From a virus (Duplodnaviria > Heunggongvirae > Uroviricota > Caudoviricetes): 47,939 nucleotides of DNA. The position numbers were made by a program, and so were the translations under genes. Where the stretch lies: the IMG/VR virus record IMGVR_UViG_2802429228_000006; one strand, written 5' to 3'. Shown here one piece after another: positions 12,970-47,242 of the stretch; position 1 is the stretch's first letter; every line of letters starts with the position of its first letter. The notes under the pieces are model-generated. The model made no database searches. It saw only the letters and a list, made by a program, of their open reading frames with translations, and was not told the origin of the DNA.

Positions 12970-14193
12970 TTATTTTAAATATTCATACTTCATCATTTGA
13001 TGAATAAGGAGTTCAACTTTTCTAAAAGTGGTATTTTCATAATGTTCAACAAGGGATTCATCAAAGTCTTCAATCCATCCTTTTGCGGGATTATAGGTCG
13101 AAAAATTAAAATTATTTTTGTATAGATAGGGGGTGGCTTCTAGTGTACTAAACACAGTCCAGGAAACAGGGTTTGTAACTCTAAATATTTTTTTTAAAAC
13201 AGGACAGTGGGTATCATTGGTTTCAACTATGTTTTCTATTTTTGGGGGGATAATTACATTAATCCCAATATCGCTATCTTTTTGGTTTAATATCTTTGTT
13301 GATCGATACGATATCCCTGATATATTTTTGTTTCTGTCACTACTAATCCATTGCATTAATAGGTTTGGTATTATGTATTCTTTATTAAAACTTGCGTTTT
13401 CATTATCTTTTGTATAGTTACATGCAAGGACTAAAGGCCATGCAATCAACTTTGAAATTTTATCATTAATTTGATCCATGAAATTATCATTATTTAGATC
13501 GTAATCATCATCTGAACCTTGTTCGAATGAATACCAAAGATCTCCCGGTTTTGTACGAAGTGCAGATGTTAAATTGTACCCAAGATCTAAAATTCTTATA
13601 TTTGAATTTTCTTTATCGGATATGAAGGAAGATATGTAAAGTTTATCAAAGTCAGGTTTTCCCATTTCTTGCCAACATACAAATATTGATGTTCCAAGAT
13701 ATAAACATGGAAGACCGGATACAGAAAATCTTTGTGCGCTAACTAAATGTCTATTTTTAAATGGTATATGAAATAATTCTTCTCTTTGTTTTAGGATGCA
13801 CTCACTTTTCCTTACGCGAAATAAAGGGGTGTGTGGGTTGCATAATTTAGTTAGAGGAACAGTCATCTTATAAAGATGAGTATGCATTGATGACTTGGTA
13901 ATTGCCAAATCGAATTTTTTATAAGCTTCTTTAACATTTCCTATTAAAAATAGCTTAAGAGTTTCTATTATTTTATCAGATAAATATATTATTGATTTTG
14001 TGCGAATCTTTACTTGTTTAATTATCTCGTTGTCAGGATATTTATTTCTAATGGAGTCAATTAATTCTAAATAGCACTCGACTCTCTTAGAAAAGTCAGA
14101 AATTAGTTTTCCCTCGGCAATGAATGGGGGTTGCAATAGTTCATGTTTTTTTAGTTCTTCCGATATCTGTTCTAATTCGATAATGTTGCGCAT
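12970..14193 (-). CDS. RES-domain protein (407 aa), candidate NAD-targeting toxin / abortive-infection effector
   Basis: AT-rich ORF between att and int. LFRVR...QRFSVSGLPCLYLGTSIFVCWQE matches the RES signature (R...GRWN..G.P.LY......E). No adjacent partner gene. Confidence 0.6.
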   Translation of the reverse strand: MRNIIELEQISEELKKHELLQPPFIAEGKLISDFSKRVECYLELIDSIRNKYPDNEIIKQVKIRTKSIIYLSDKIIETLKLFLIGNVKEAYKKFDLAITKSSMHTHLYKMTVPLTKLCNPHTPLFRVRKSECILKQREELFHIPFKNRHLVSAQRFSVSGLPCLYLGTSIFVCWQEMGKPDFDKLYISSFISDKENSNIRILDLGYNLTSALRTKPGDLWYSFEQGSDDDYDLNNDNFMDQINDKISKLIAWPLVLACNYTKDNENASFNKEYIIPNLLMQWISSDRNKNISGISYRSTKILNQKDSDIGINVIIPPKIENIVETNDTHCPVLKKIFRVTNPVSWTVFSTLEATPYLYKNNFNFSTYNPAKGWIEDFDESLVEHYENTTFRKVELLIHQMMKYEYLK

Positions 14194-18049: not shown

Positions 18050-18903
18050 GCACCATCCTGAAATGGGCGGGAAATAAAACCGCCATTATGTCCGAACTGA
18101 AAAAACATCTTCCTGCTGGCTCGCGACTGGTTGAACCTTTCGCGGGTTCCTGTGCTGTGATGATGGAGACGGATTACCCCAGCTATCTTGTTGCGGATAT
18201 TAATCCTGATTTAATCAACCTCTATAAAAAGGTTGCTGCTGATTGCGAGGCGTTTATATCTCGTGCCAGAGCTTTATTTGAGGAAGCAAACAGGGATGTG
18301 GCTTATTACAACATAAGGCAGGAGTTTAATTACTCCATTGAAATTACTGATTTCATGAAAGCGGTATATTTCCTGTATCTCAATCGTCATGGTTACCGTG
18401 GGTTATGTCGCTATAACAAGAGCGGGCATTTCAACATTCCGTACGGTAATTATAAAAATCCGTATTTCCCTGAAAAAGAAATTCGCGCATTTGCAGAGAA
18501 AGCCCAGCGGGCAACGTTTATATGCGCCAGCTTTGATGAAACGCTGGCGATGTTGAAGGCGGGGGATGTGGTGTATTGCGATCCGCCTTATGACGGTACG
18601 TTTTCCGACTATCACACTGACGGCTTCACTGAAGATGACCAGTATCACCTGGCATCCCTTCTTGAACATCGGTCATCAGAAGGACATCCGGTCATTGTTT
18701 CTAACAGTGACACATCCCTGATCCGTTCGCTGTATCGCAATTTTACTCACCACTACATCAAGGCAAAACGCAGCATCGGCGTAGCAGCTGGTGAGAGTAA
18801 ATCTGCAACAGAAATCATCGCTGTTTCCGGGACACGCTGCTGGGTGGGATTTGATTATTCGCGTGGCGTGGATAGTTCAGCCGTGTACGGAGTACGTGCA
18901 TGA
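18046..18903 (+). CDS. dam: DNA adenine methyltransferase (Dam-like, N6-MTase)
   Basis: KWAGNK...FAGS motif I and DPPY motif IV; ATG at 18046 with a GGAGG RBS. The track start at 17986 is an upstream extension overlapping the previous gene. Confidence 0.85.
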
Positions 18904-21314
18904 GTCATGCCGATATGAACAACTGCTGCGGCTTTAACGAGGCTGCCGCAGCGTTCTCATGGAACAGCCCGAAAAAGGCCATTAACCCTTATCTGGACCC
19001 GGCGGAAGTCGCGCCGGTTTCTGCGCTTTCAAACCTGATCACTCTGTACGCTGCCGATAACGAGCAGGAACAGCTGCGCCGCGAGGCACTGAGTGATCAG
19101 GCCTGGGAGCGTTATTTCTTTAATGAATCCCGTGATCCTGTCCAACGCGAAATGGAGCAGGATAAGCTCATTAGCCGGGCAAAGCTGGCGCATGAGCAGC
19201 AGCGTTTTAATCCAGACATGGTCATTCTGGCGGACGTTAACGCCCAGCCTTCCCATATCAGCAAGCCGCTGATGCAACGTATTGAATACTTCAGCAGCCT
19301 GGGCAGGCCAAAGGCTTATTCCCGCTATTTGCGTGAGACGATTAAGCCATGTCTGGAACGACTGGAGCATGTACGCGACTGTCAGCTATCCACTTCTTTT
19401 CGCTTTATGGCAAGCCATGAAGGGCTGGACGGCCTGCTGATCCTGCCTGAAATGAGTCAGGATCAGGTGAAGCGCCTGTCTACCCTTGTCGCCGCGCATA
19501 TGAGCATGTGCCTTGATGCAGCTTGTGGTGATTTGTATGCCACCGATGACATTAAGCCAGAAGAAATCCGCAAAACATGGGAAAAGGTGGCAGCGGAAAC
19601 CCTGCGTCTGGATGTTATCCCGCCTGCGTTTGAGCAACTCCGTCGGAAAAGAAACCGCCGTAAACCCGTGCCTTATGAACTCATTCCGGGTTCGCTGGCG
19701 CGTATGTTATGCGCCGACTGGTGGTATCGGAAATTATGGAAGATGCGTTGCGAATGGCGGGAAGAGCAGTTGCGTGCTGTTTGCCTGGTCAGCAAAAAAG
19801 CATCTCCCTATGTCAGCTATGAAGCCGTGATGCATAAACGTGAGCAGCGCCGTAAGTCGCTGGAGTTTTTCCGTTCTCATGAACTGGTGAACGAAGACGG
19901 CGACACGCTGGATATGGAAGACGTGGTAAACGCCAGCAGCAGCAACCCTGCGCATCGCCGCAATGAGATGATGGCCTGTGTTAAAGGTCTGGAGCTTATC
20001 GCGGAAATGCGCGGTGACTGCGCCGTTTTCTACACCATCACCTGTCCGTCACGTTTCCATTCCACGCTAAATAACGGCAGGCCCAACCCGACCTGGACAA
20101 ATGCGACGGTAAGACAAAGCAGTGATTATCTGGTCGGTATGTTTGCTGCATTTCGTAAGGCGATGCACAAAGCCGGATTACGCTGGTATGGCGTGCGGGT
20201 GGCTGAGCCGCATCATGACGGTACAGTTCACTGGCACCTGTTGTGTTTTATGCGCAAAAAAGATCGCCGCGCCATTACTGCTTTGTTGCGTAAGTTTGCC
20301 ATTCGTGAAGACCGCGAGGAGCTGGGTAATAACACGGAACCACGCTTTAAGTCTGAGCTGATAAACCCGCGCAAAGGTACGCCAACAAGCTACATCGCGA
20401 AATACATCAGTAAGAACATTGACGGGCGTGGTCTGGCTGGCGAGATCAGCAAGGAAACGGGTAAATCCCTGCGTGATAACGCTGAATACGTTAATGCCTG
20501 GGCGTCTCTGCATCGTGTTCAGCAATTCCGCTTCTTTGGCATTCCGGGGCGTCAGGCTTACCGTGAACTGCGATTGCTGGCTGGTCAGGCGGCAAGGCAA
20601 CAGGGGGACAAAAAAGCAGGTGCGCCGGTACTGGATAACCCGCGCCTTGATGCCATCCTAGCCGCTGCTGATGCTGGTTGTTTTGCCACCTACATCATGA
20701 AGCAGGGCGGCGTACTGGTTCCCCGCAAATATCACCTCATCAGAACCGCTTATGAAATCAACGAAGAGCCGACCGCCTATGGCGATCACGGTATTCGTAT
20801 TTATGGCATCTGGTCACCCATTGCAGAGGGCAAGATCTGCACTCATGCGGTGAAGTGGAAAATGGTTCGTAAGGCCGTTGACATTCAGGAGGCGGCAGCC
20901 GACCAGGGCGCTTGCGCCCCTTGGACTCGTGGCAATAACTGTCCCCTTGCTGAAAATTTGAACCAACAGGAGAAAGATAAATCAGCTGATGGGGACCCCA
21001 GAACGGACATTACCAGCATGGATGACAAGGAGTTGCACGATTACCTGCACAGTATGAGCAAAAAAGAGCGCCGGGAACTGGCAGCAAGGTTACGCCTGGT
21101 GAAACCGAAACGGCGTAAAGACTACAAACAGCGAATTACAGACCATCAGCGACTGCAGCTCGTGTATGAGCTGAAGTCCAGAGGATTTGATGGCAGCGAG
21201 AAAGAGGTCGATTTACTCCTTCGCGGAGGCAGTATTCCGTCAGGAGCAGGCCTGCGTATCTTCTATCGGAACCAGCGTTTGCAGGAAGATGATCAGTGGC
21301 GGAACCTGTATTAA
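18900..21314 (+). CDS. A: Replication initiation endonuclease (P2 gene A family, rolling-circle initiator)
   Basis: 804-aa product of the size and position of P2/186 gene A, following the early operon. Confidence 0.85.
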
Positions 21315-22221: not shown

Positions 22222-23631
22222 ATGTCTTTTCTTGATATAAAAAAAATGAGTAAAGAGAGGTTTAATGCTTTTGTTGATTGGACCAGAATGCCAAATACTG
22301 AACTTTTAGGCTATGAGTTTGAGTGGTACTGTAGTCCGAGAGAGTTCCTGCTAGGGGCACTATTATTGGATCAAATCGATGAAGATTATAGCGGTATTGT
22401 TTTAGCAAGAGACTTAAGTGGGAGATATAGATGTATTGACCTATTTACTAGTGTTTCAGAAATGAATTCTGCACGAGCAAAACTAAAGAAATTAATGCGG
22501 AAGCATACTAAATTAAACGTAAAAGTATTTCCACAAGGTGATGAAACTTATAAAGCAATGGATTTATTCACACCTATAGTTACACCAGATAAACTTCATC
22601 ATCATTTTTCATTATTTGGTAAATATGCGAACTGGTCGCCTGCAACAGGGATAATCAAGGAAATGATGAATCATTTTGAGGATGTCGACGGGAATTTTAT
22701 AGAGCAGTTTCAGACAACAGGTTTTGATGCCCGGCTATGGGAGTTATATCTTTTCGCATATTTACGAGAGGAACACTTTTGGCTAGATAGGCAGTTTAAT
22801 GCCCCTGATTATGTGGCACGTAAGTATGGTAATACTATTTGCATTGAAGCTGTAACGGTTAATCCAACAGGGAATGATATTAATCAATCATCTGAAATGC
22901 TATCTGAACCTAAAAGTAAGGAAGAATTGCTAGAGAAAATAGAGAATTATATGCCGATTAAATTTGGAAGTTCTCTCTATTCTAAACTGAAAAAGAAAAC
23001 TCGATACTGGGATCTAGAACATGTTAAGGGGAATCCTTTAATTTTCGCAATTGCTGATTTTCATGAACCAAACTCTATGATTTGGTCCCATAGTGCACTT
23101 TGGCAGTATCTTTATGGTATTCGCTATGAGCATGTTAAATCTGAAGATGGATGTTACAGTTTAGCAACTAAGAAAATTATATCGCATCAATTTGAGAAAA
23201 AGGAAATCCCTTCAGGCTTTTTCTTCTTGGATGAGTCTGAAAATATTTCGGCCGTCCTTAGTTCTAATAGTGGTACTATATCGAAGTTTAATCGGATGGG
23301 AAAACTGGCTGGTTTTGGAAGAAGTGACCTTAGATTATTTAGGAGTGGTTACTGCCATGATCATGACCCAGAGGCATTATATCCAGCAGCATTTAGTTTT
23401 GAAGTGAAAGAAGGCGATATTACAGAAACATGGGCAGAAGGTTTAAATATGTATCATAATCCTAATGCTAAATATCCTGTAGATCCTGATTTATTTCCTT
23501 CAATAGCACATCATTTTCTTGAAAATGGAGAGGTTAAAAGTATAGTGCCTGACTTTCATCCGTATACATCTATTACCATAAATGTCTTAACTCAAAATAA
23601 TAAAAAACAAAAAATCAGAGTAGATGAGTAA
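22222..23631 (+). CDS. Cargo protein (469 aa) of unrecognised family; candidate anti-phage factor
   Basis: AT-rich ORF in the variable region between gene A and portal gene Q; no P-loop, RT or obvious nuclease motif. Confidence 0.7.
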   Translation: MSFLDIKKMSKERFNAFVDWTRMPNTELLGYEFEWYCSPREFLLGALLLDQIDEDYSGIVLARDLSGRYRCIDLFTSVSEMNSARAKLKKLMRKHTKLNVKVFPQGDETYKAMDLFTPIVTPDKLHHHFSLFGKYANWSPATGIIKEMMNHFEDVDGNFIEQFQTTGFDARLWELYLFAYLREEHFWLDRQFNAPDYVARKYGNTICIEAVTVNPTGNDINQSSEMLSEPKSKEELLEKIENYMPIKFGSSLYSKLKKKTRYWDLEHVKGNPLIFAIADFHEPNSMIWSHSALWQYLYGIRYEHVKSEDGCYSLATKKIISHQFEKKEIPSGFFFLDESENISAVLSSNSGTISKFNRMGKLAGFGRSDLRLFRSGYCHDHDPEALYPAAFSFEVKEGDITETWAEGLNMYHNPNAKYPVDPDLFPSIAHHFLENGEVKSIVPDFHPYTSITINVLTQNNKKQKIRVDE

Positions 23632-24716: not shown

Positions 24717-26479
24717 AAAATCTCCACAATATTGCTGGTATTGGCGGATTCGCCCTGCAGCGGTTCGTTAAACAGTGCGTGCATCGTTGCCCAGGCCAGA
24801 TCGGCGTGGCTGGCTTCTTCGCTGCGGCTGGCTTCATAGGTCGGGCGGTTGCCACTGGCGGTGGTGGCGCGGCGGATTGCCATAAAGGACTGCGCTATGT
24901 CGGTGTGTCCGGCGTCAAACTCCAGACGGCGGTGGCTGATAATGTCGTAGGCCTTGAGTACCAGGGCGTTTTTAACGTTGGGGTTGTAGACAAACTCCCG
25001 GACGGCAGGAAAAAACGCTTTCACGTTCTCGTAAACCCCGTGACCAACGCCGGTTGAGTCGATACCGATATAGGTCACGTTGTACTGTTCGGTCAGTTTT
25101 TTGATGGCGTCAGCCTGGGCGCGGAAGTCCATTCCGCGCCACTGGTGACGCTCAAGAATGCGGAACTTACCGCCCGGCACGGCTGGCGGCGCCACCACCA
25201 CGCATCCGGCGCTGTCGCCGTTCTGCGTACCTTTCGCCGGGTCATATCCGATCCACACTTCGCGCCAGCCAAACGGGCGCAGGGCCAGTGCATGAAAGTC
25301 GGTCCAGACTTCCCAACTGTCCACCATGCACGCCTGCAGCTCGCTGAGTGGGAACACAGACGCGAGATCGTCCACGAACTCACACATCAGCAGGTTCTGG
25401 TATTCGTCCGGGCTGTACTCCATGCGCAACTGGTCGAGGTCGAACAGGTTACAGCCGCCGCGCACCGCATCTTCCACAGTGACTATCTGGCGGTACTGCC
25501 CGTCTGCGCACAGCAGGCCGGGGGCCAGATTGCTGTGGGACAGGTCGATGTCCACCTTATCGGCTTTGTTGCGCCCTCGGTTGAACAGCGCACCGGACCA
25601 GAACGGATAAGCACTGTGTGTCAGGCTGGATGGCGTGGAAAAATAGGTTTGTCGCCATTTTTTGTGAATAGCCATACCGGAAGCCACTTTGCGCAGCTCC
25701 TGGAATTTCGGTATCCAGAAATATTCATCCAGATACAGGTTGCCGTGGTAACTCTGGGCCGTGCGGGCATTGGTGCCGAGGAAGTACAGCGTGGCCCCGT
25801 TAGGAAGCACCATCGGATCGCCTTTCAGCTCCACCTCCACTTCTTTGGCGAAGTCGATGATGTACTGCTTAAAGACGTGGGCCTGAGCCTTGCTGGCGGA
25901 AAGGAAAATCTGGTTACGCCCGGTTAGCAGGGCGTCAATCAGGGCTTCACGGGCAAAATAGAAGGTCGCGCCGATCTGGCGTGACTTCAGCAGGTTGCGG
26001 ATGCGGTTGGTTTTTCCGGCTTCCCACCAGTGGCGCTGGTAGTTGAACATGGAGGAATGGAAGATTTCTTCCAGCTTCTCAATCTGTTCATCGGTGAAAA
26101 CGTTCTTTTCCGGCTGACGGCGCGGGCCTTTGTTGCGGTTGGCGACGTTAGGGTTTAAGTCGGCTTCGTTGCCGCCATTGTTAAACTTGCCGATCCGCGC
26201 ATGGCGCTCCGACTGGCGCGCCAGCAGGTCAATCTCTTTGAAATCTTTCCCTTCTTTGTGCTCCTTCATAATGAGCTGGCAGTAGCGTGCGGCGGTGGTG
26301 AGCTGCATCTGATCCAGCGGCCCATAGTCACCCCACTTGTCGCGTTTTTTCCAGCTGTGAACGGTTGCAACTTTCTCGCCCAGCATTTCAGCAATGCGGG
26401 CTACGCGGTATCCCTGAAAGTACAGCAGCATGGCCTGCCGACGGGGATCGAGATCTGCGGGTGTCAGTGTGGTGTTCAT
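24713..26479 (-). CDS. P: Terminase large (ATPase) subunit (P2 P homolog)
   Basis: 588-aa P2-family terminase ATPase, divergent from O. Confidence 0.9.
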   Translation of the reverse strand: MNTTLTPADLDPRRQAMLLYFQGYRVARIAEMLGEKVATVHSWKKRDKWGDYGPLDQMQLTTAARYCQLIMKEHKEGKDFKEIDLLARQSERHARIGKFNNGGNEADLNPNVANRNKGPRRQPEKNVFTDEQIEKLEEIFHSSMFNYQRHWWEAGKTNRIRNLLKSRQIGATFYFAREALIDALLTGRNQIFLSASKAQAHVFKQYIIDFAKEVEVELKGDPMVLPNGATLYFLGTNARTAQSYHGNLYLDEYFWIPKFQELRKVASGMAIHKKWRQTYFSTPSSLTHSAYPFWSGALFNRGRNKADKVDIDLSHSNLAPGLLCADGQYRQIVTVEDAVRGGCNLFDLDQLRMEYSPDEYQNLLMCEFVDDLASVFPLSELQACMVDSWEVWTDFHALALRPFGWREVWIGYDPAKGTQNGDSAGCVVVAPPAVPGGKFRILERHQWRGMDFRAQADAIKKLTEQYNVTYIGIDSTGVGHGVYENVKAFFPAVREFVYNPNVKNALVLKAYDIISHRRLEFDAGHTDIAQSFMAIRRATTASGNRPTYEASRSEEASHADLAWATMHALFNEPLQGESANTSNIVEIF

Positions 26480-31463: not shown

Positions 31464-31596
31464 CGGTGATCTGAACGCGTTGCTGGATGAAACGGAGGCC
31501 GCCTGGGCGGTCTGTGCAGACAAAGTGGACATGATTATTGCGTGTCAGGAGCGAAACAGTGAACAAACCACAATCCCTGCGCCACGCCCTCAATAA
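31306..31596 (+). CDS. o-spanin (Rz1/LysC-like lipoprotein), overlapping the i-spanin gene in another frame
   Basis: Lipobox LLTLSGC after a signal peptide; starts inside the i-spanin gene in the +1 frame (GTG start) and extends beyond it. Confidence 0.55.
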   Translation: MRTRIYAAGLILLCLLTLSGCGNVRHSPEVWLTVSGCPRVTPCRLDQATPRTNGDLNALLDETEAAWAVCADKVDMIIACQERNSEQTTIPAPRPQ

Positions 31597-31990
31597 AGCG
31601 GTGCCTTATGTCCGCAATAACCCGGACAAACTGCATCTGTTTGTGGATAACGGTTCGCTGGTTGCCACGGGGGCCAGCTCCATGTCGTGGGAGTACCGTT
31701 ACACACTGAACGCGGTGATTGAGGATTTCAGCGGCGACCAGAATCTGCTGATGGCCCCGGTTTTGCTGTGGCTGAGGGATAACCAGCCCGATGCCATCAA
31801 TAACCCGGCGTTACGGGAAAAGCTATTCACCTTTGAGGTGGATATTCTGCGCAACGATGTCTGTGATATCAGCCTGAACCTGCAACTGACGGAACGTGTG
31901 CTGGTCAGCACTGACGGCAGTGTGTCGAGCGTTGAAGCTATAGCGGAACCTGATGCACCTGAAGAAATGTGGACGGTGAAATGTGGCTGA
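31559..31990 (+). CDS. R: Tail completion protein (P2 R homolog)
   Basis: GTG start with an AGGAG RBS gives the N-terminus VNKPQSLRHAL, resembling P2 gpR (MLKPDSLRRAL). Confidence 0.7.
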   Translation: MNKPQSLRHALNKAVPYVRNNPDKLHLFVDNGSLVATGASSMSWEYRYTLNAVIEDFSGDQNLLMAPVLLWLRDNQPDAINNPALREKLFTFEVDILRNDVCDISLNLQLTERVLVSTDGSVSSVEAIAEPDAPEEMWTVKCG

Positions 31991-32441
31991 ACTGCAGAAG
32001 GTGGACGACTGGCTGAGTGCCTTGCTGGCGAATCTGGAACCAGCCTCGAGAAGCCGCATGATGCGCCAGCTGGCGCAGGAACTTCGCCGGACACAGCAGC
32101 AGAATATCAGGATGCAGCGCAACCCTGACGGCAGCAGCTATGAACCGCGACGGGTAACAGCACGCAGTAAAAAAGGCCGTATCAAACGTCAGATGTTTGC
32201 AAAGCTGCGCACCACAAAATACCTGAAAACTGCCGCCAGCGCCGACTCTGCCAGCGTGCAGTTTGAAGGTAAGGTACAGCGCATTGCCCGTGTTCACCAT
32301 TACGGTCTGCGTGATCGCGTCAGTCGCAAAGGACCGGACGTACGGTATGCAGAGCGGCGTTTGTTGGGTATTAACAATGATATTGAGAACAACGTTAAGA
32401 ATGTTTTTTATCAATGGTTAATTAATAACAATAAGCCGTAA
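31983..32441 (+). CDS. S: Tail completion / virion morphogenesis protein (P2 S homolog); last ~20 codons AT-rich
   Basis: 152-aa gpS-like protein; composition of the 3' end shifts abruptly to AT-rich. Confidence 0.8.
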   Translation: MAELQKVDDWLSALLANLEPASRSRMMRQLAQELRRTQQQNIRMQRNPDGSSYEPRRVTARSKKGRIKRQMFAKLRTTKYLKTAASADSASVQFEGKVQRIARVHHYGLRDRVSRKGPDVRYAERRLLGINNDIENNVKNVFYQWLINNNKP

Positions 32442-32466
32442 AAATTTTAGATTAAAAATAAGTTAT

Positions 32467-32493
32467 GAACGGGTGGCCTAGGAGGCCACCCGT
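32467..32493. terminator. Bidirectional terminator hairpin between convergent S and the AIPR-type gene
   Basis: aacgggtggcctaggaggccacccgtt, a 12-bp stem. Confidence 0.5.
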
Positions 32494-32496
32494 TAT

Positions 32497-34197
32497 TTAT
32501 TCAAGGTGATTTGAAAGAGTAATTAATGGCTCAATCGGTTGGAACGCTTTTAAGGATGTTAATATGTTTTTAACTTCCTTTGATACGATAGATAACGGGT
32601 TGTCTGTTACAGATAAGTAGGTGGTTAAATCTTGACCTGAAACACGGATAACATGTGGTAATATCGCAGTTATAACTGGTGTCCAAAGGTCGATTAAATC
32701 ATCCAGAGAGTTATTTTTAGATAATGCTGTATCATATTTATATTTTATTTTCTTCTTGTTCAAAGGTTTATCTGTTAATTCTTCAAGTATTTCTCCGATG
32801 ACGGATATTAAAAAGAATCGAGACTTTAAATTTTGGAGGAATAATAAGTTATCCTCATCTACTTTAATTTTATTCTCTTTTGCACGGATTTGAGATTTTA
32901 CTTTTTCTATAGCTTTTGAAATAGTGTAAGCACATAAAATATGCTGGGCTTTCGAATCATGAAAGGCATTGTCATAGGCTGATTTTGTATCGAAAACGTA
33001 GTTTTTACCTCTATTGGCGCTAACATAATCCCCATGTAACGCTATCAGCGGTTGAGCAACAGACTCAATGCCAAATAAAGAACCAGTATTTTCGAAGCCG
33101 CGTTTCAGTGAATATGTATAACCAAGAGTGGAAAATTCTTCTGCCACCTGTTTTTGTTCTGTGCTGTTAGAGTAGTGATCCCAGGTTGTAATATGATTCT
33201 GAGTATTATTATACTGGACTATTTTTTTTACTTTGTCCGCATCATTACATTCAATAACCTTACAAAGGACTTTTAGGCCATCTAATTTTTGTATATCTTG
33301 AACTGAACCAATAGAACCAGTGGTTTGAGCTCCATTTATGATTGAAACTCCTTCCAACAACCCTTTTTCTTTGTTGAATTTTGTTGTTAGGATTGATACA
33401 CCATTGTTAAAGACAAAGAAGTCTTTTGGGGATGTTTCTGCGGTATTCTTAATTGATGAGTTTATTTTTCTTCTCTTATTTAATCCCATGAACCCCCTAT
33501 AATTAGCAGAAAATAATTCTGCTCCATAATTTTTGTATAAATAATTTAGCCAAGTGCCGTTTGCAAAGCCAACATGTGAAGTCCAGCCATCACCTTGTAC
33601 AGAATTTATAAGTTCGCCATTGAACTTTATATTGTCAGTCACAACAATTTGTTGTGATAGCGCAATATACAATTTTTCAAGACTATTAACACCAAGTTCT
33701 CTGTAAGTTACCTCAATTTCTTTGTCTGCAAATCTACCTGCTAGATAGTCACGACAAGTTTCAAGCTCAGTTTTAACCTGCTCAGATTCGGCACAATTAT
33801 GGATATATAATAATTCAACAGCTTCAATTTCGTTATCATCAATTAATTTTCTAACCTCAGAAATTTTTGCTCTTAATTTTGCATTTGGAGACTCTCCTGA
33901 GCCTGCCATAATCCACGCTAAAGCAGTGTTTAAGTCAGAAGCTTTATTTGCAGGCGCAACTATTTTAAGTGCTTGCTGATTGCAGTAGTAACCCTGAGCA
34001 ATAAATAACGTTGAATTAATTACGGTAATGAAGTCTATTTTCTTATCGTTTCCACCATCAGTAAGTCCATCAGATGCTAGCTTATCAAAATCGGATTCAT
34101 CTAAGTAAAGACCTAATGACCATAAAAGATGTGCGTTACTAGTCCCGTACTTTTCTAACAGGGAAGTTTTATTTTGCAGTTGTCTTAAGTGTTCCAT
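32497..34197 (-). CDS. AIPR-type (abortive infection phage resistance) protein, 566 aa
   Basis: AT-rich ORF antisense to the tail genes; the conserved block ...GVSIINGAQTTGS... resembles the AIPR family. Confidence 0.65.
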   Translation of the reverse strand: MEHLRQLQNKTSLLEKYGTSNAHLLWSLGLYLDESDFDKLASDGLTDGGNDKKIDFITVINSTLFIAQGYYCNQQALKIVAPANKASDLNTALAWIMAGSGESPNAKLRAKISEVRKLIDDNEIEAVELLYIHNCAESEQVKTELETCRDYLAGRFADKEIEVTYRELGVNSLEKLYIALSQQIVVTDNIKFNGELINSVQGDGWTSHVGFANGTWLNYLYKNYGAELFSANYRGFMGLNKRRKINSSIKNTAETSPKDFFVFNNGVSILTTKFNKEKGLLEGVSIINGAQTTGSIGSVQDIQKLDGLKVLCKVIECNDADKVKKIVQYNNTQNHITTWDHYSNSTEQKQVAEEFSTLGYTYSLKRGFENTGSLFGIESVAQPLIALHGDYVSANRGKNYVFDTKSAYDNAFHDSKAQHILCAYTISKAIEKVKSQIRAKENKIKVDEDNLLFLQNLKSRFFLISVIGEILEELTDKPLNKKKIKYKYDTALSKNNSLDDLIDLWTPVITAILPHVIRVSGQDLTTYLSVTDNPLSIVSKEVKNILTSLKAFQPIEPLITLSNHLE

Positions 34198-34271
34198 TTA
34201 CCAAGCTTCTTTTTTGTTAATGAGATAACTCTCAATAATTTATAGATAGTAGTCGTTTTTTGCCAGTTGTT

Positions 34272-34289
34272 TGTGACAGCCGTGATACA
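34272..34289 (+). promoter_or_regulatory. Ogr/Delta activator site (TGT-N12-ACA) of a P_V-like late promoter
   Basis: tgtgacagccgtgataca about 50-65 bp upstream of V. Confidence 0.5.
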
Positions 34290-34335
34290 ACTATCAAAGC
34301 TACTTCTCAATTTTGAGATATAGCAGTCTATTTTC

Positions 34336-34914
34336 ATGAACACACAACTAACCGAAATCATGCGCCTTATCACCAACCTGATCCGCACTGGGGTAGTCAC
34401 CGAAGTGGACCGGGAAAACTGGCTTTGTCGGGTGAAAACAGGCGACTTAGAAACCAACTGGATCAGCTGGCTGACCCTGCGTGCCGGGAATGCCCGGACA
34501 TGGTGGCGACCATCGGAAGGTGAGCAGGTGGTGCTGCTGAGTCTGGGCGGCAATCTGGAGACCGCCTTTGCGCTGCCCGCTGTCTATTCGAATCAGTTCG
34601 CACCACCGTCGACGTCGGCGGACGCCTGCGTGACAGAACATCCTGACGGTGGCTGGTTTGAATACGAACCCGCCACCGGGCGCTGGTATGTCAGGGGCAT
34701 CAAATCCATGGTTATTGAGGCTGCCGACAATATCACCCTGAAAACCAGTGAGTTTGTGCTGGAGGCTGACCGCACGCGTATTAATAGTGAAGTAGTGATC
34801 AATGGCGGCGTTACCCAGGGCGGCGGTGCGATGAGTTCTAACGGGATCGTGGTTGATGCGCATCAGCATACTGGCGTCCTGAAAGGCGGCGATACAACCG
34901 GAGGCCCGGTATGA
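34336..34914 (+). CDS. V: Baseplate spike/assembly protein (P2 V homolog)
   Basis: 192-aa gpV-like protein. Confidence 0.85.
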   Translation: MNTQLTEIMRLITNLIRTGVVTEVDRENWLCRVKTGDLETNWISWLTLRAGNARTWWRPSEGEQVVLLSLGGNLETAFALPAVYSNQFAPPSTSADACVTEHPDGGWFEYEPATGRWYVRGIKSMVIEAADNITLKTSEFVLEADRTRINSEVVINGGVTQGGGAMSSNGIVVDAHQHTGVLKGGDTTGGPV

Positions 34915-46253: not shown

Positions 46254-46275
46254 AACCTGCTACGGCAGGTTTTTA
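46254..46275. terminator. Bidirectional terminator between ogr and the convergent cargo gene
   Basis: aacctgctacggcaggtt followed by ttta. Confidence 0.5.
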
Positions 46276-46755
46276 TTCATCTGGGATCTCACCCGTTTCA
46301 AGAAAATGTATAAAGCCAGGCTCATCTATGATGATTGTGCCTTTCATCCTGGCTGCCGATACTTTTGATGGGCCTGCATTGTAACCGCAACAGAGCATCT
46401 GAAGGCTTTGGGTTACAGAGGTTCTTACCGTTAATCCTTGTTCATTCGCCTTATCAACCAATCTTTCTTTATCTGCTTTCTTAAATCCGGTGAAACACAC
46501 ATCGAATGTATTTTTTTTCGGACCAGACTGCTTAGTGAGATGTGAGTAGTTTTCGGGGAGGAATGACGCGCATTCCTGAATGGCTTGTTCTGGTGAATCG
46601 TACTGTTTAAGAATGCGGTCTTTTCGGAAGGTTTTTATTCGATCGGTGTTCTTACAAATGCCCTGTATATGATTTTCGCTATAACTGATGCTCTGTATTG
46701 AGTGAACTCCGATACGACCATTTGCATTGATGTAAACAAAGTGAAGTTCTTCCAT
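46273..46755 (-). CDS. Small cargo protein (160 aa) with WYL-like N-terminal and BRCT-like C-terminal domain
   Basis: N-terminal ...IKTFRKDRI resembles the WYL signature (RTFRLDRI); the C-terminal hydrophobic/Gly pattern (VCFTGF...GPSK...IIIDEPGFIHFL) resembles a BRCT fold; AAGAGG RBS. Confidence 0.55.
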   Translation of the reverse strand: MEELHFVYINANGRIGVHSIQSISYSENHIQGICKNTDRIKTFRKDRILKQYDSPEQAIQECASFLPENYSHLTKQSGPKKNTFDVCFTGFKKADKERLVDKANEQGLTVRTSVTQSLQMLCCGYNAGPSKVSAARMKGTIIIDEPGFIHFLETGEIPDE

Positions 46756-46878: not shown

Positions 46879-47242
46879 TGGTGGAGCTGGCGGGAGTTGA
46901 ACCCGCGTCCGAAATTCCTACATCCTCGGTACTACATGCTTAGTCAGTCTTTACATTCGCTTGCCAGCTGCGGACAGACACGCCACTAACAAACTAGCCT
47001 GATTAAGTTTTAACGCTTCAACCCCAGGCAAGGCTTCCACGCGATCTCTTTTGGGTTTGACCTCTCTTGATCCCCGTCCTAAGAGCGGAGGCTAGGGAGA
47101 GAGGGCTCTAAGCAGGTTATTAAGCTGCTAAAGCGTAGTTTTCGTCGTTTGCGACTATTTTTTGCGGCTTTTTACGAGGCCAACCGCCCCTCGGCATGCA
47201 CCTTGGGTTTCGCAAATCCCGTCGAATCCAGAATCAGCCCCA
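46879..47242 (-). ncRNA. ssrA: tmRNA (SsrA, 10Sa RNA)
   Basis: The reverse complement reads GGGGCTGATTCTGGATTCGACGGGATTTGCG...GCAAACGACGAAAACTACGCTTTAGCAGCT...GGTTCAACTCCCGCCAGCTCCACCA, including the ANDENYALAA tag-coding region. Ends may be off by 1 nt. Confidence 0.95.

Follow-up and report, generated by a model that had tools for sequence, protein, structure and literature searches.

The closest described counterpart of the gene analysed here is AbiU (AbiUi/AbiU1) of Lactococcus lactis, the prototype both of the Pfam family AIPR (PF10592) and of the systems named AbiU in PADLOC and DefenseFinder. AbiUi alone is sufficient for resistance in Lactococcus, where it delays phage transcription, and the drop in plating efficiency associated with lactococcal AbiU is only 10- to 100-fold (PMC13064643). 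[quoted passage not shown] AIPR has also been listed among the cargo of the P4 hotspot (PMC9122126), and AbiU has been reported in both P2 and P4.

The position of the gene likewise has a described counterpart. The P2 genome record (NC_001895) annotates a 786-bp antisense gene, 'Orf30; nonessential', exactly between the tail genes S and V, with a terminator annotated on one side of it and the pV activator-binding site on the other. Non-P2 genes are said to be very common in three regions, TO, Z and orf30, in a passage of PMC3091744 that cites Nilsson & Haggard-Ljungquist (2007). Another ORF occupies the S–V position in phiCTX (PMC2771037), and in R18C the place between V and S is taken by a different ORF, of 741 bp (PMC6823313). 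Recent papers on defence hotspots stress the A–Q (tin/old) locus, the Z/fun locus and the tail-to-CI locus, and a 2026 preprint working with seven core genes only assigns 16% of P2 defence systems to a position 'downstream of GpL'. The S–V junction is thus not singled out in the recent hotspot literature, yet it is not a new site.

We analysed a window of 47,939 nucleotides (IMG/VR record IMGVR_UViG_2802429228_000006) containing a 186/Fels-2-like prophage of the P2 family (Peduoviridae) integrated next to ssrA in E. coli. The late genes on either side of the junction are readily recognised: upstream, on the plus strand, gpR, a conserved tail completion protein (31538..31990; Pfam P2_Phage_GpR, E 6.4e-46), and gpS, a tail completion/virion morphogenesis protein of 152 aa (31983..32441; Pfam Phage_tail_S, E 7.6e-41); downstream, on the same strand, gpV, the baseplate spike (34336..34914; Pfam Phage_base_V, E 5e-18, plus Apex). 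Between S and V, on the minus strand, lies an AIPR/AbiU-family gene (32497..34197; ATG start, 566 aa, 34.3% GC). A composition scan of the window gave GC values of 0.30–0.38 over 32300–34400 and of 0.53–0.62 on either side, so that a gene of about 34% GC is set in flanks of about 57%. A first-pass annotation, made from the sequence alone, had proposed an AIPR-type, AT-rich gene of 566 aa in antisense between S and V, and the ORF and the profile searches bear this out; the interval given for it, 32368–34290, delimits the swapped block described below, not the gene. The ORF matched the Pfam AIPR model with 90.9 bits (E 1.6e-25; residues 229–498 on profile positions 1–289 of 308), above the curated gathering cut-off of 25 bits, and the PADLOC AbiU model PDLC02357 with an E-value of 1.7e-24 (residues 115–511 on profile positions 138–513 of 537).

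Homologues of the protein are numerous (1046 with E <= 1e-5), mostly about 570 aa long, and the full-length architecture is kept across them. Dozens of residues are invariant in a 51-sequence family alignment, and all of them are retained in the protein of the window. When the gene was compared with a homologue of 84% identity, pN was 0.107 and pS 0.774 (pN/pS ~0.14); these values are given in place of dN/dS, which is not computable because pS is saturated in this comparison. Given the 1046 homologues, the invariant residues and a pN far below the saturated pS, this ORF is a real gene under purifying selection and not a chance ORF. Members of the family have a GC content of 33–35% whatever the host. 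The gene is the sole cargo gene of its cassette, no common neighbour gene was found around its homologues in four different contexts, and its organisation is that of a stand-alone, single-gene unit. In this it resembles lactococcal AbiU, with which it also shares a similar length (566 aa and a PADLOC model of 537 positions) and a predicted FokI-like nuclease fold. It differs in being a distant homologue, detectable at the profile level only, in lacking an AbiUii/HEPN neighbour, and in its carrier, which is a P2-family prophage of enterobacteria and not a lactococcal plasmid.

An AF2 model built from the 51 sequences had a mean pLDDT of 83.7. In this model, residues 1 to ~225 form an alpha/beta domain for which a PD-(D/E)xK-like nuclease fold is predicted, and the C-terminus is helical. 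The predicted N-terminal domain has the alpha-beta-beta-beta-alpha-beta core of the PD-(D/E)xK superfamily, in agreement with the literature, where lactococcal AbiU has been compared with FokI by AlphaFold. The invariant residues include D47, D51, D55, Q68, K85, H133, N134 and E137. D55 precedes the first hairpin strand; in the second, the invariant Q68-G-Y70 takes the place of (D/E)xK, and K85 lies in the helix after this strand. Because 'QGY' sits where ExK would be expected, the nuclease activity predicted from the fold is not assured. Searched with the family profile, the PDB sequences yielded nothing (best E 0.6), nor did Foldseek return any PDB entry with E <= 0.001; a domain-only AF2 model of residues 226–450 had a pLDDT of 57 and was left out of the fold search.

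The limits of the cassette were located by alignment of S and the S–V region with the cargo-free Escherichia phage 500465-1 and Klebsiella phage 4LV2017 (flanks 96% identical), and with a sister phage carrying a different cargo, vB_EcoM-813R9. The left recombination breakpoint falls inside S (~32368..32375), where DNA identity to the loci L001 and L002 ends and GC drops from 0.57 to 0.38. The identity of S to both the cargo-free 500465-1 and the PARIS-carrying 813R9 stops after the codons ...RRLLG(I/V)N. Codons 1 to ~130 of gpS thus belong to the native lineage and the last ~20 (~32373–32441), which are AT-rich, are cassette-derived, as the first-pass annotation had suspected in proposing that the native 3' end of S had been replaced. 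The C-terminus of gpS reads NDIENNVKNVFYQWLINNNKP in the window and DDVEAMTRDMILQWLAG in the cargo-free allele, and each cassette type examined has a C-terminus of its own. The right breakpoint is the start codon of V (34336): from the ATG onwards the sequence is again nearly identical to L001 and L002, with two base differences in the first V codons. In 500465-1 and 4LV2017, the S stop codon and the V start codon are separated by 68 bp.

The control elements inside these limits also belong to the cassette. Between the stop codons of the convergent S and AIPR genes we found a probable bidirectional intrinsic terminator (32468..32494), the hairpin AACGGGTGGCCTAGGAGGCCACCCGTT, with 12 pairs (8 of them GC), a 3-nt loop and an MFE of -24.6 kcal/mol (z -4.2). 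A palindromic terminator between the two genes had been noticed at first pass; a terminator is annotated at the equivalent place in P2, and the locus of the 84% homologue (L088) has a different hairpin in the same place. On the other side of the gene is a divergent, cassette-borne control region of 138 bp (34198..34335), which contains the plus-strand P_V promoter and a palindrome, TCTCAATTTTGAGA (34305–34318). By pattern match, the TGT-N12-ACA dyad TGTGACAGCCGTGATACA (34272..34289, plus strand) is the Ogr-type late-activator site of P_V: its centre is located ~55 nt upstream of the V ATG, a spacing shared by the site annotated in P2, and further matches to the same pattern at 26468, 26526 and 39029 coincide with the expected late promoters (P_P/P_O and P_F). 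The P_V activator site had been described as intact; it is present, correctly spaced and functionally conserved, but it is the cassette's own diverged copy and not the native one. The control region as a whole, as far as the V ATG, differs in sequence from the cargo-free allele; blocks of it are conserved with L088. Among the enterobacterial relatives, all the cassette types that were aligned have a dyad of this pattern upstream of the V ATG, each with a sequence of its own. The promoter of the AIPR gene is presumably on the minus strand of the same 138 bp. A scan with the sigma-70 consensus revealed no minus-strand promoter upstream of the gene, and hand-picked -35/-10 candidates conserved with L088 were too weak to be asserted.

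The layout is that of the P2 orf30 locus: S, terminator, antisense cargo, pV activator site and V, with an AT-rich cargo in both cases (GC 36% in P2 and 34% here). The cargo itself is different. The AIPR gene is twice as long as P2 orf30 and, unlike it, belongs to a recognisable defence family, and homology between the two proteins was ruled out (BLASTP E 1.9).

The 1968-bp block was found to be 99.9–100% identical in four of 5426 complete E. coli genomes (S88, MS7163, N53 and BEN5202), with the AIPR ORF intact in all four, and it was absent from the plasmid collection searched. In these genomes the product is labelled 'AIPR family protein' by PGAP/RefSeq (WP_000400690.1); the family and its RefSeq annotation being already on record, the gene is not new. 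The closest relatives of the AIPR protein (80–84%) are an 84%-identical copy at the S–V junction of an unrelated metagenomic P2-like contig and, in Pantoea, copies of 80% identity next to the ends of P2-like prophages. In Aeromonas, a 58% copy lies on the chromosome beside thrABC. A 31% copy occupies the A–Q (TO) hotspot of Klebsiella P2-like phages such as ST512-KPC3phi13.2, and represents a different subfamily of the same family in another hotspot. The prophage of the window carries a PD-T7-1 homologue in its own TO hotspot, and a defence phenotype of the lysogen would need to be apportioned between that gene and the AIPR gene.

We consider it probable that the gene is a stand-alone AbiU/AIPR anti-phage 'moron' of the orf30 locus and that it arrived by cassette exchange. 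The exchange would have taken place between P2-family genomes, by recombination in the conserved body or 3' end of S and at the 5' end or start of V, rather than by simple insertion, and would have replaced a block of ~1.97 kb comprising the last ~20 codons of S, the terminator, the antisense cargo and the P_V control region. Exchange of the whole cassette is suggested by the cassette-specific S C-terminus, terminator and P_V region, and by the recurrence of the AIPR lineage at the junction in a divergent phage; it also fits the 'swap' dynamics described for the defence loci of P2 and P4. In a lysogen, with the late operons silent, transcription of the AIPR gene would presumably start at a promoter of its own within the 138-bp region, and the protein would act as a constitutively expressed sensor-effector. 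Upon infection by another phage, the predicted N-terminal PD-(D/E)xK-like domain may attack and cleave nucleic acid, controlled by the AIPR domain in the centre of the protein and the helical domain at its C-terminus, so that phage gene expression would be blocked or delayed, as in lactococcal AbiU, development of the phage aborted or slowed, and the lysogen population protected.

The protein might instead be a regulatory or accessory component, comparable to DndB or to AIPR proteins that go with type III RM or Mza systems, and would then have no function by itself. The described association of AIPR with RM systems and its relationship to DndB (PMC3506569) point in this direction, as do the non-canonical catalytic triad and the weak matches to MzaE models. 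The NCBIfam MzaE equivalog, however, gave a score of only 50.3 bits against a cut-off of 1050, the annotated genome neighbourhood showed no mza gene adjoining the AIPR gene, and no RM, dnd or mza gene was found in the cassette or in any of the four homologue contexts. Together with the ~570-aa architecture conserved under purifying selection in the 1046 homologues and the sufficiency of AbiUi in Lactococcus, these results make an accessory role improbable. We attach an equally small probability to the gene being a silent or decaying hitchhiker, that is, unexpressed AT-rich xenogeneic DNA conferring nothing on its host. Silenced foreign DNA typically has a GC content like the 34% found here, the upstream region showed no consensus promoter, the cassette is restricted to four of the 5426 genomes and the S88 prophage has a frameshifted gpA. 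Against decay, the ORF is intact and 99.9–100% identical in the four strains, its pN/pS is ~0.14, all the invariant residues of the family are kept, and gpA is intact in the window (18900–21314).

At first pass the S–V position was taken to hold no gene in P2 and to extend the known variable loci of P2-like phages by a further site for cargo. The recent hotspot papers, which name only the A–Q (tin/old), Z/fun and tail-to-CI loci, could be read in this way, as could the preprint in which everything 'downstream of GpL' is lumped together, and the closest sequenced relatives, 500465-1 and 4LV2017, carry no cargo at the junction. This reading was nevertheless already refuted by the Orf30 annotation of P2 and by the recurrence of foreign genes at orf30 (PMC3091744, PMC2771037, PMC6823313), and our survey of prophages leaves it with hardly any probability. 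The flanks matched 1062 complete E. coli replicons (1056 of 5426 genomes), from which 60 rows were sampled evenly down the ranking; both flanks were present in 57 rows, and the S–V junction held cargo in 32 of these and was empty in 25. A scan of IMG/VR with gpS returned 80 loci and found the site empty in 71 of the 84 measured (including a few fetched earlier), a figure that was not used as an estimate of occupancy since the gpS ranking favours the cargo-free S C-terminus. The AIPR case is unremarkable, a gene from a known family in a variable locus that has been recognised for a long time, and it carries little weight as a discovery: the family, its RefSeq annotation and the locus had all been recorded before, as had the occurrence of AbiU in P2-like phages. 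The AIPR/AbiU gene of the window is nonetheless of modest practical value as a clean single-gene E. coli copy suited to the study of mechanism, and its cassette, with one breakpoint inside S and the other at the V ATG, exemplifies the exchange of defence cassettes through recombination in conserved late genes.

The sampled prophages contained a variety of other cargos at the junction. An AAA ATPase with a DUF4435 protein was identified by PADLOC as PARIS AriA/AriB (E 5.7e-40 and 2.3e-24, respectively), and we also found GmrSD/DUF262, a TIR-domain protein, P-loop NTPases, DUF6216, DUF2971, DUF5677, FRG and hypothetical proteins. With roughly half of the sampled prophages occupied and with validated system types (PARIS, GmrSD, TIR) among the cargo, the S–V (orf30) junction may be a major defence hotspot left unresolved by the recent literature, a proposal to which we give slightly less than an even chance. 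If it is correct, the uncharacterised orf30 cargos (DUF6216, DUF2971, DUF5677, FRG, P2 Orf30 and the hypothetical proteins) would be new anti-phage genes; and since a gpS C-terminus and a P_V promoter come with every cassette, defence swapping would also remodel the essential tail-completion protein gpS and the control of a late promoter. With S and V as anchors, diverse candidate defence genes can be harvested from this locus in a simple way. The PARIS (AriA/AriB), GmrSD and TIR genes of the sister prophages are unrelated to the AIPR gene in protein and mechanism (hhalign of the AIPR profile against the S–V GmrSD gave a probability of 0.1%), but they lie in the identical S–V slot, are AT-rich and come with a cassette-specific S C-terminus. 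All the S–V cargos extracted are antisense and have a GC content of 31–36%.

The last ~20 residues of gpS (32373–32441, + strand), an essential tail-completion protein, were found to be different with each cargo cassette in a comparison including the window, the cargo-free relatives L001 and L002, loci L010, L011, L021 and L061, and L088, a metagenomic P2-like contig carrying a homologue of the AIPR gene (84% identity) at the S–V junction. A ...(Q/R/E)WL... motif was nevertheless kept in the gpS tails of the enterobacterial relatives; the W of this motif was absent from the tails of P2 and of the more distant L088. Since the sequence of these residues varies with the cassette, the comparison implies that the gpS C-terminal tail tolerates wholesale replacement. 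At the other end of the cassette, a palindrome, TCTCAATTTTGAGA (34305–34318), lies between the Ogr site, the late-activator dyad of P_V, and the start of V, and it is kept in L088 in the form TCTCAAAAATGAGA. This palindrome may belong to the P_V core or AIPR promoter, or it may act as an operator.

The commonest cargo at the S–V junction in the sampled E. coli genomes consisted of membrane proteins of the DUF6216 family, carried, for example, by genomes H95–H100 of our prophage sample, E. coli B strain C2566 among them. These proteins, which yielded no match in the PADLOC search, are candidates for a role in exclusion or defence that is as yet uncharacterised.

The A–Q (tin/old, "TO") hotspot of the prophage is occupied by a gene (22222–23631, + strand) labelled only as a hypothetical protein in RefSeq, the 469-aa product of which is a PD-T7-1 homologue (PADLOC, E = 1.3e-196). 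Counting the AIPR gene at the S–V junction, this single prophage thus has two defence cargos, each in a different hotspot. Two further ORFs were located near the prophage ends. The first, of 407 aa (12970–14193, − strand), is located in the interval that separates the prophage end from the integrase gene, a position corresponding to "integrase to att", a reported minor P2 defence hotspot, and had no match in either Pfam or PADLOC. The second, of 160 aa (46273–46755, − strand), has ogr on one side and the ssrA attachment site on the other, and adjoins the tmRNA gene (46879–47241, − strand); it is annotated in RefSeq as a BRCT domain protein, and it gave only a weak PADLOC match (PDC-S48, E = 1.8e-7) and none in the Pfam search.

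The window and E. coli S88, which has a near-identical AIPR block, share 99.7% identity over 35 kb, and the window therefore comes from a sister strain of S88. The replication endonuclease gpA (804 aa; 18900–21314, + strand) is annotated as frameshifted in S88, whereas its ORF is intact in the window, and in the gpA region the S88 locus is ~26 nt longer.
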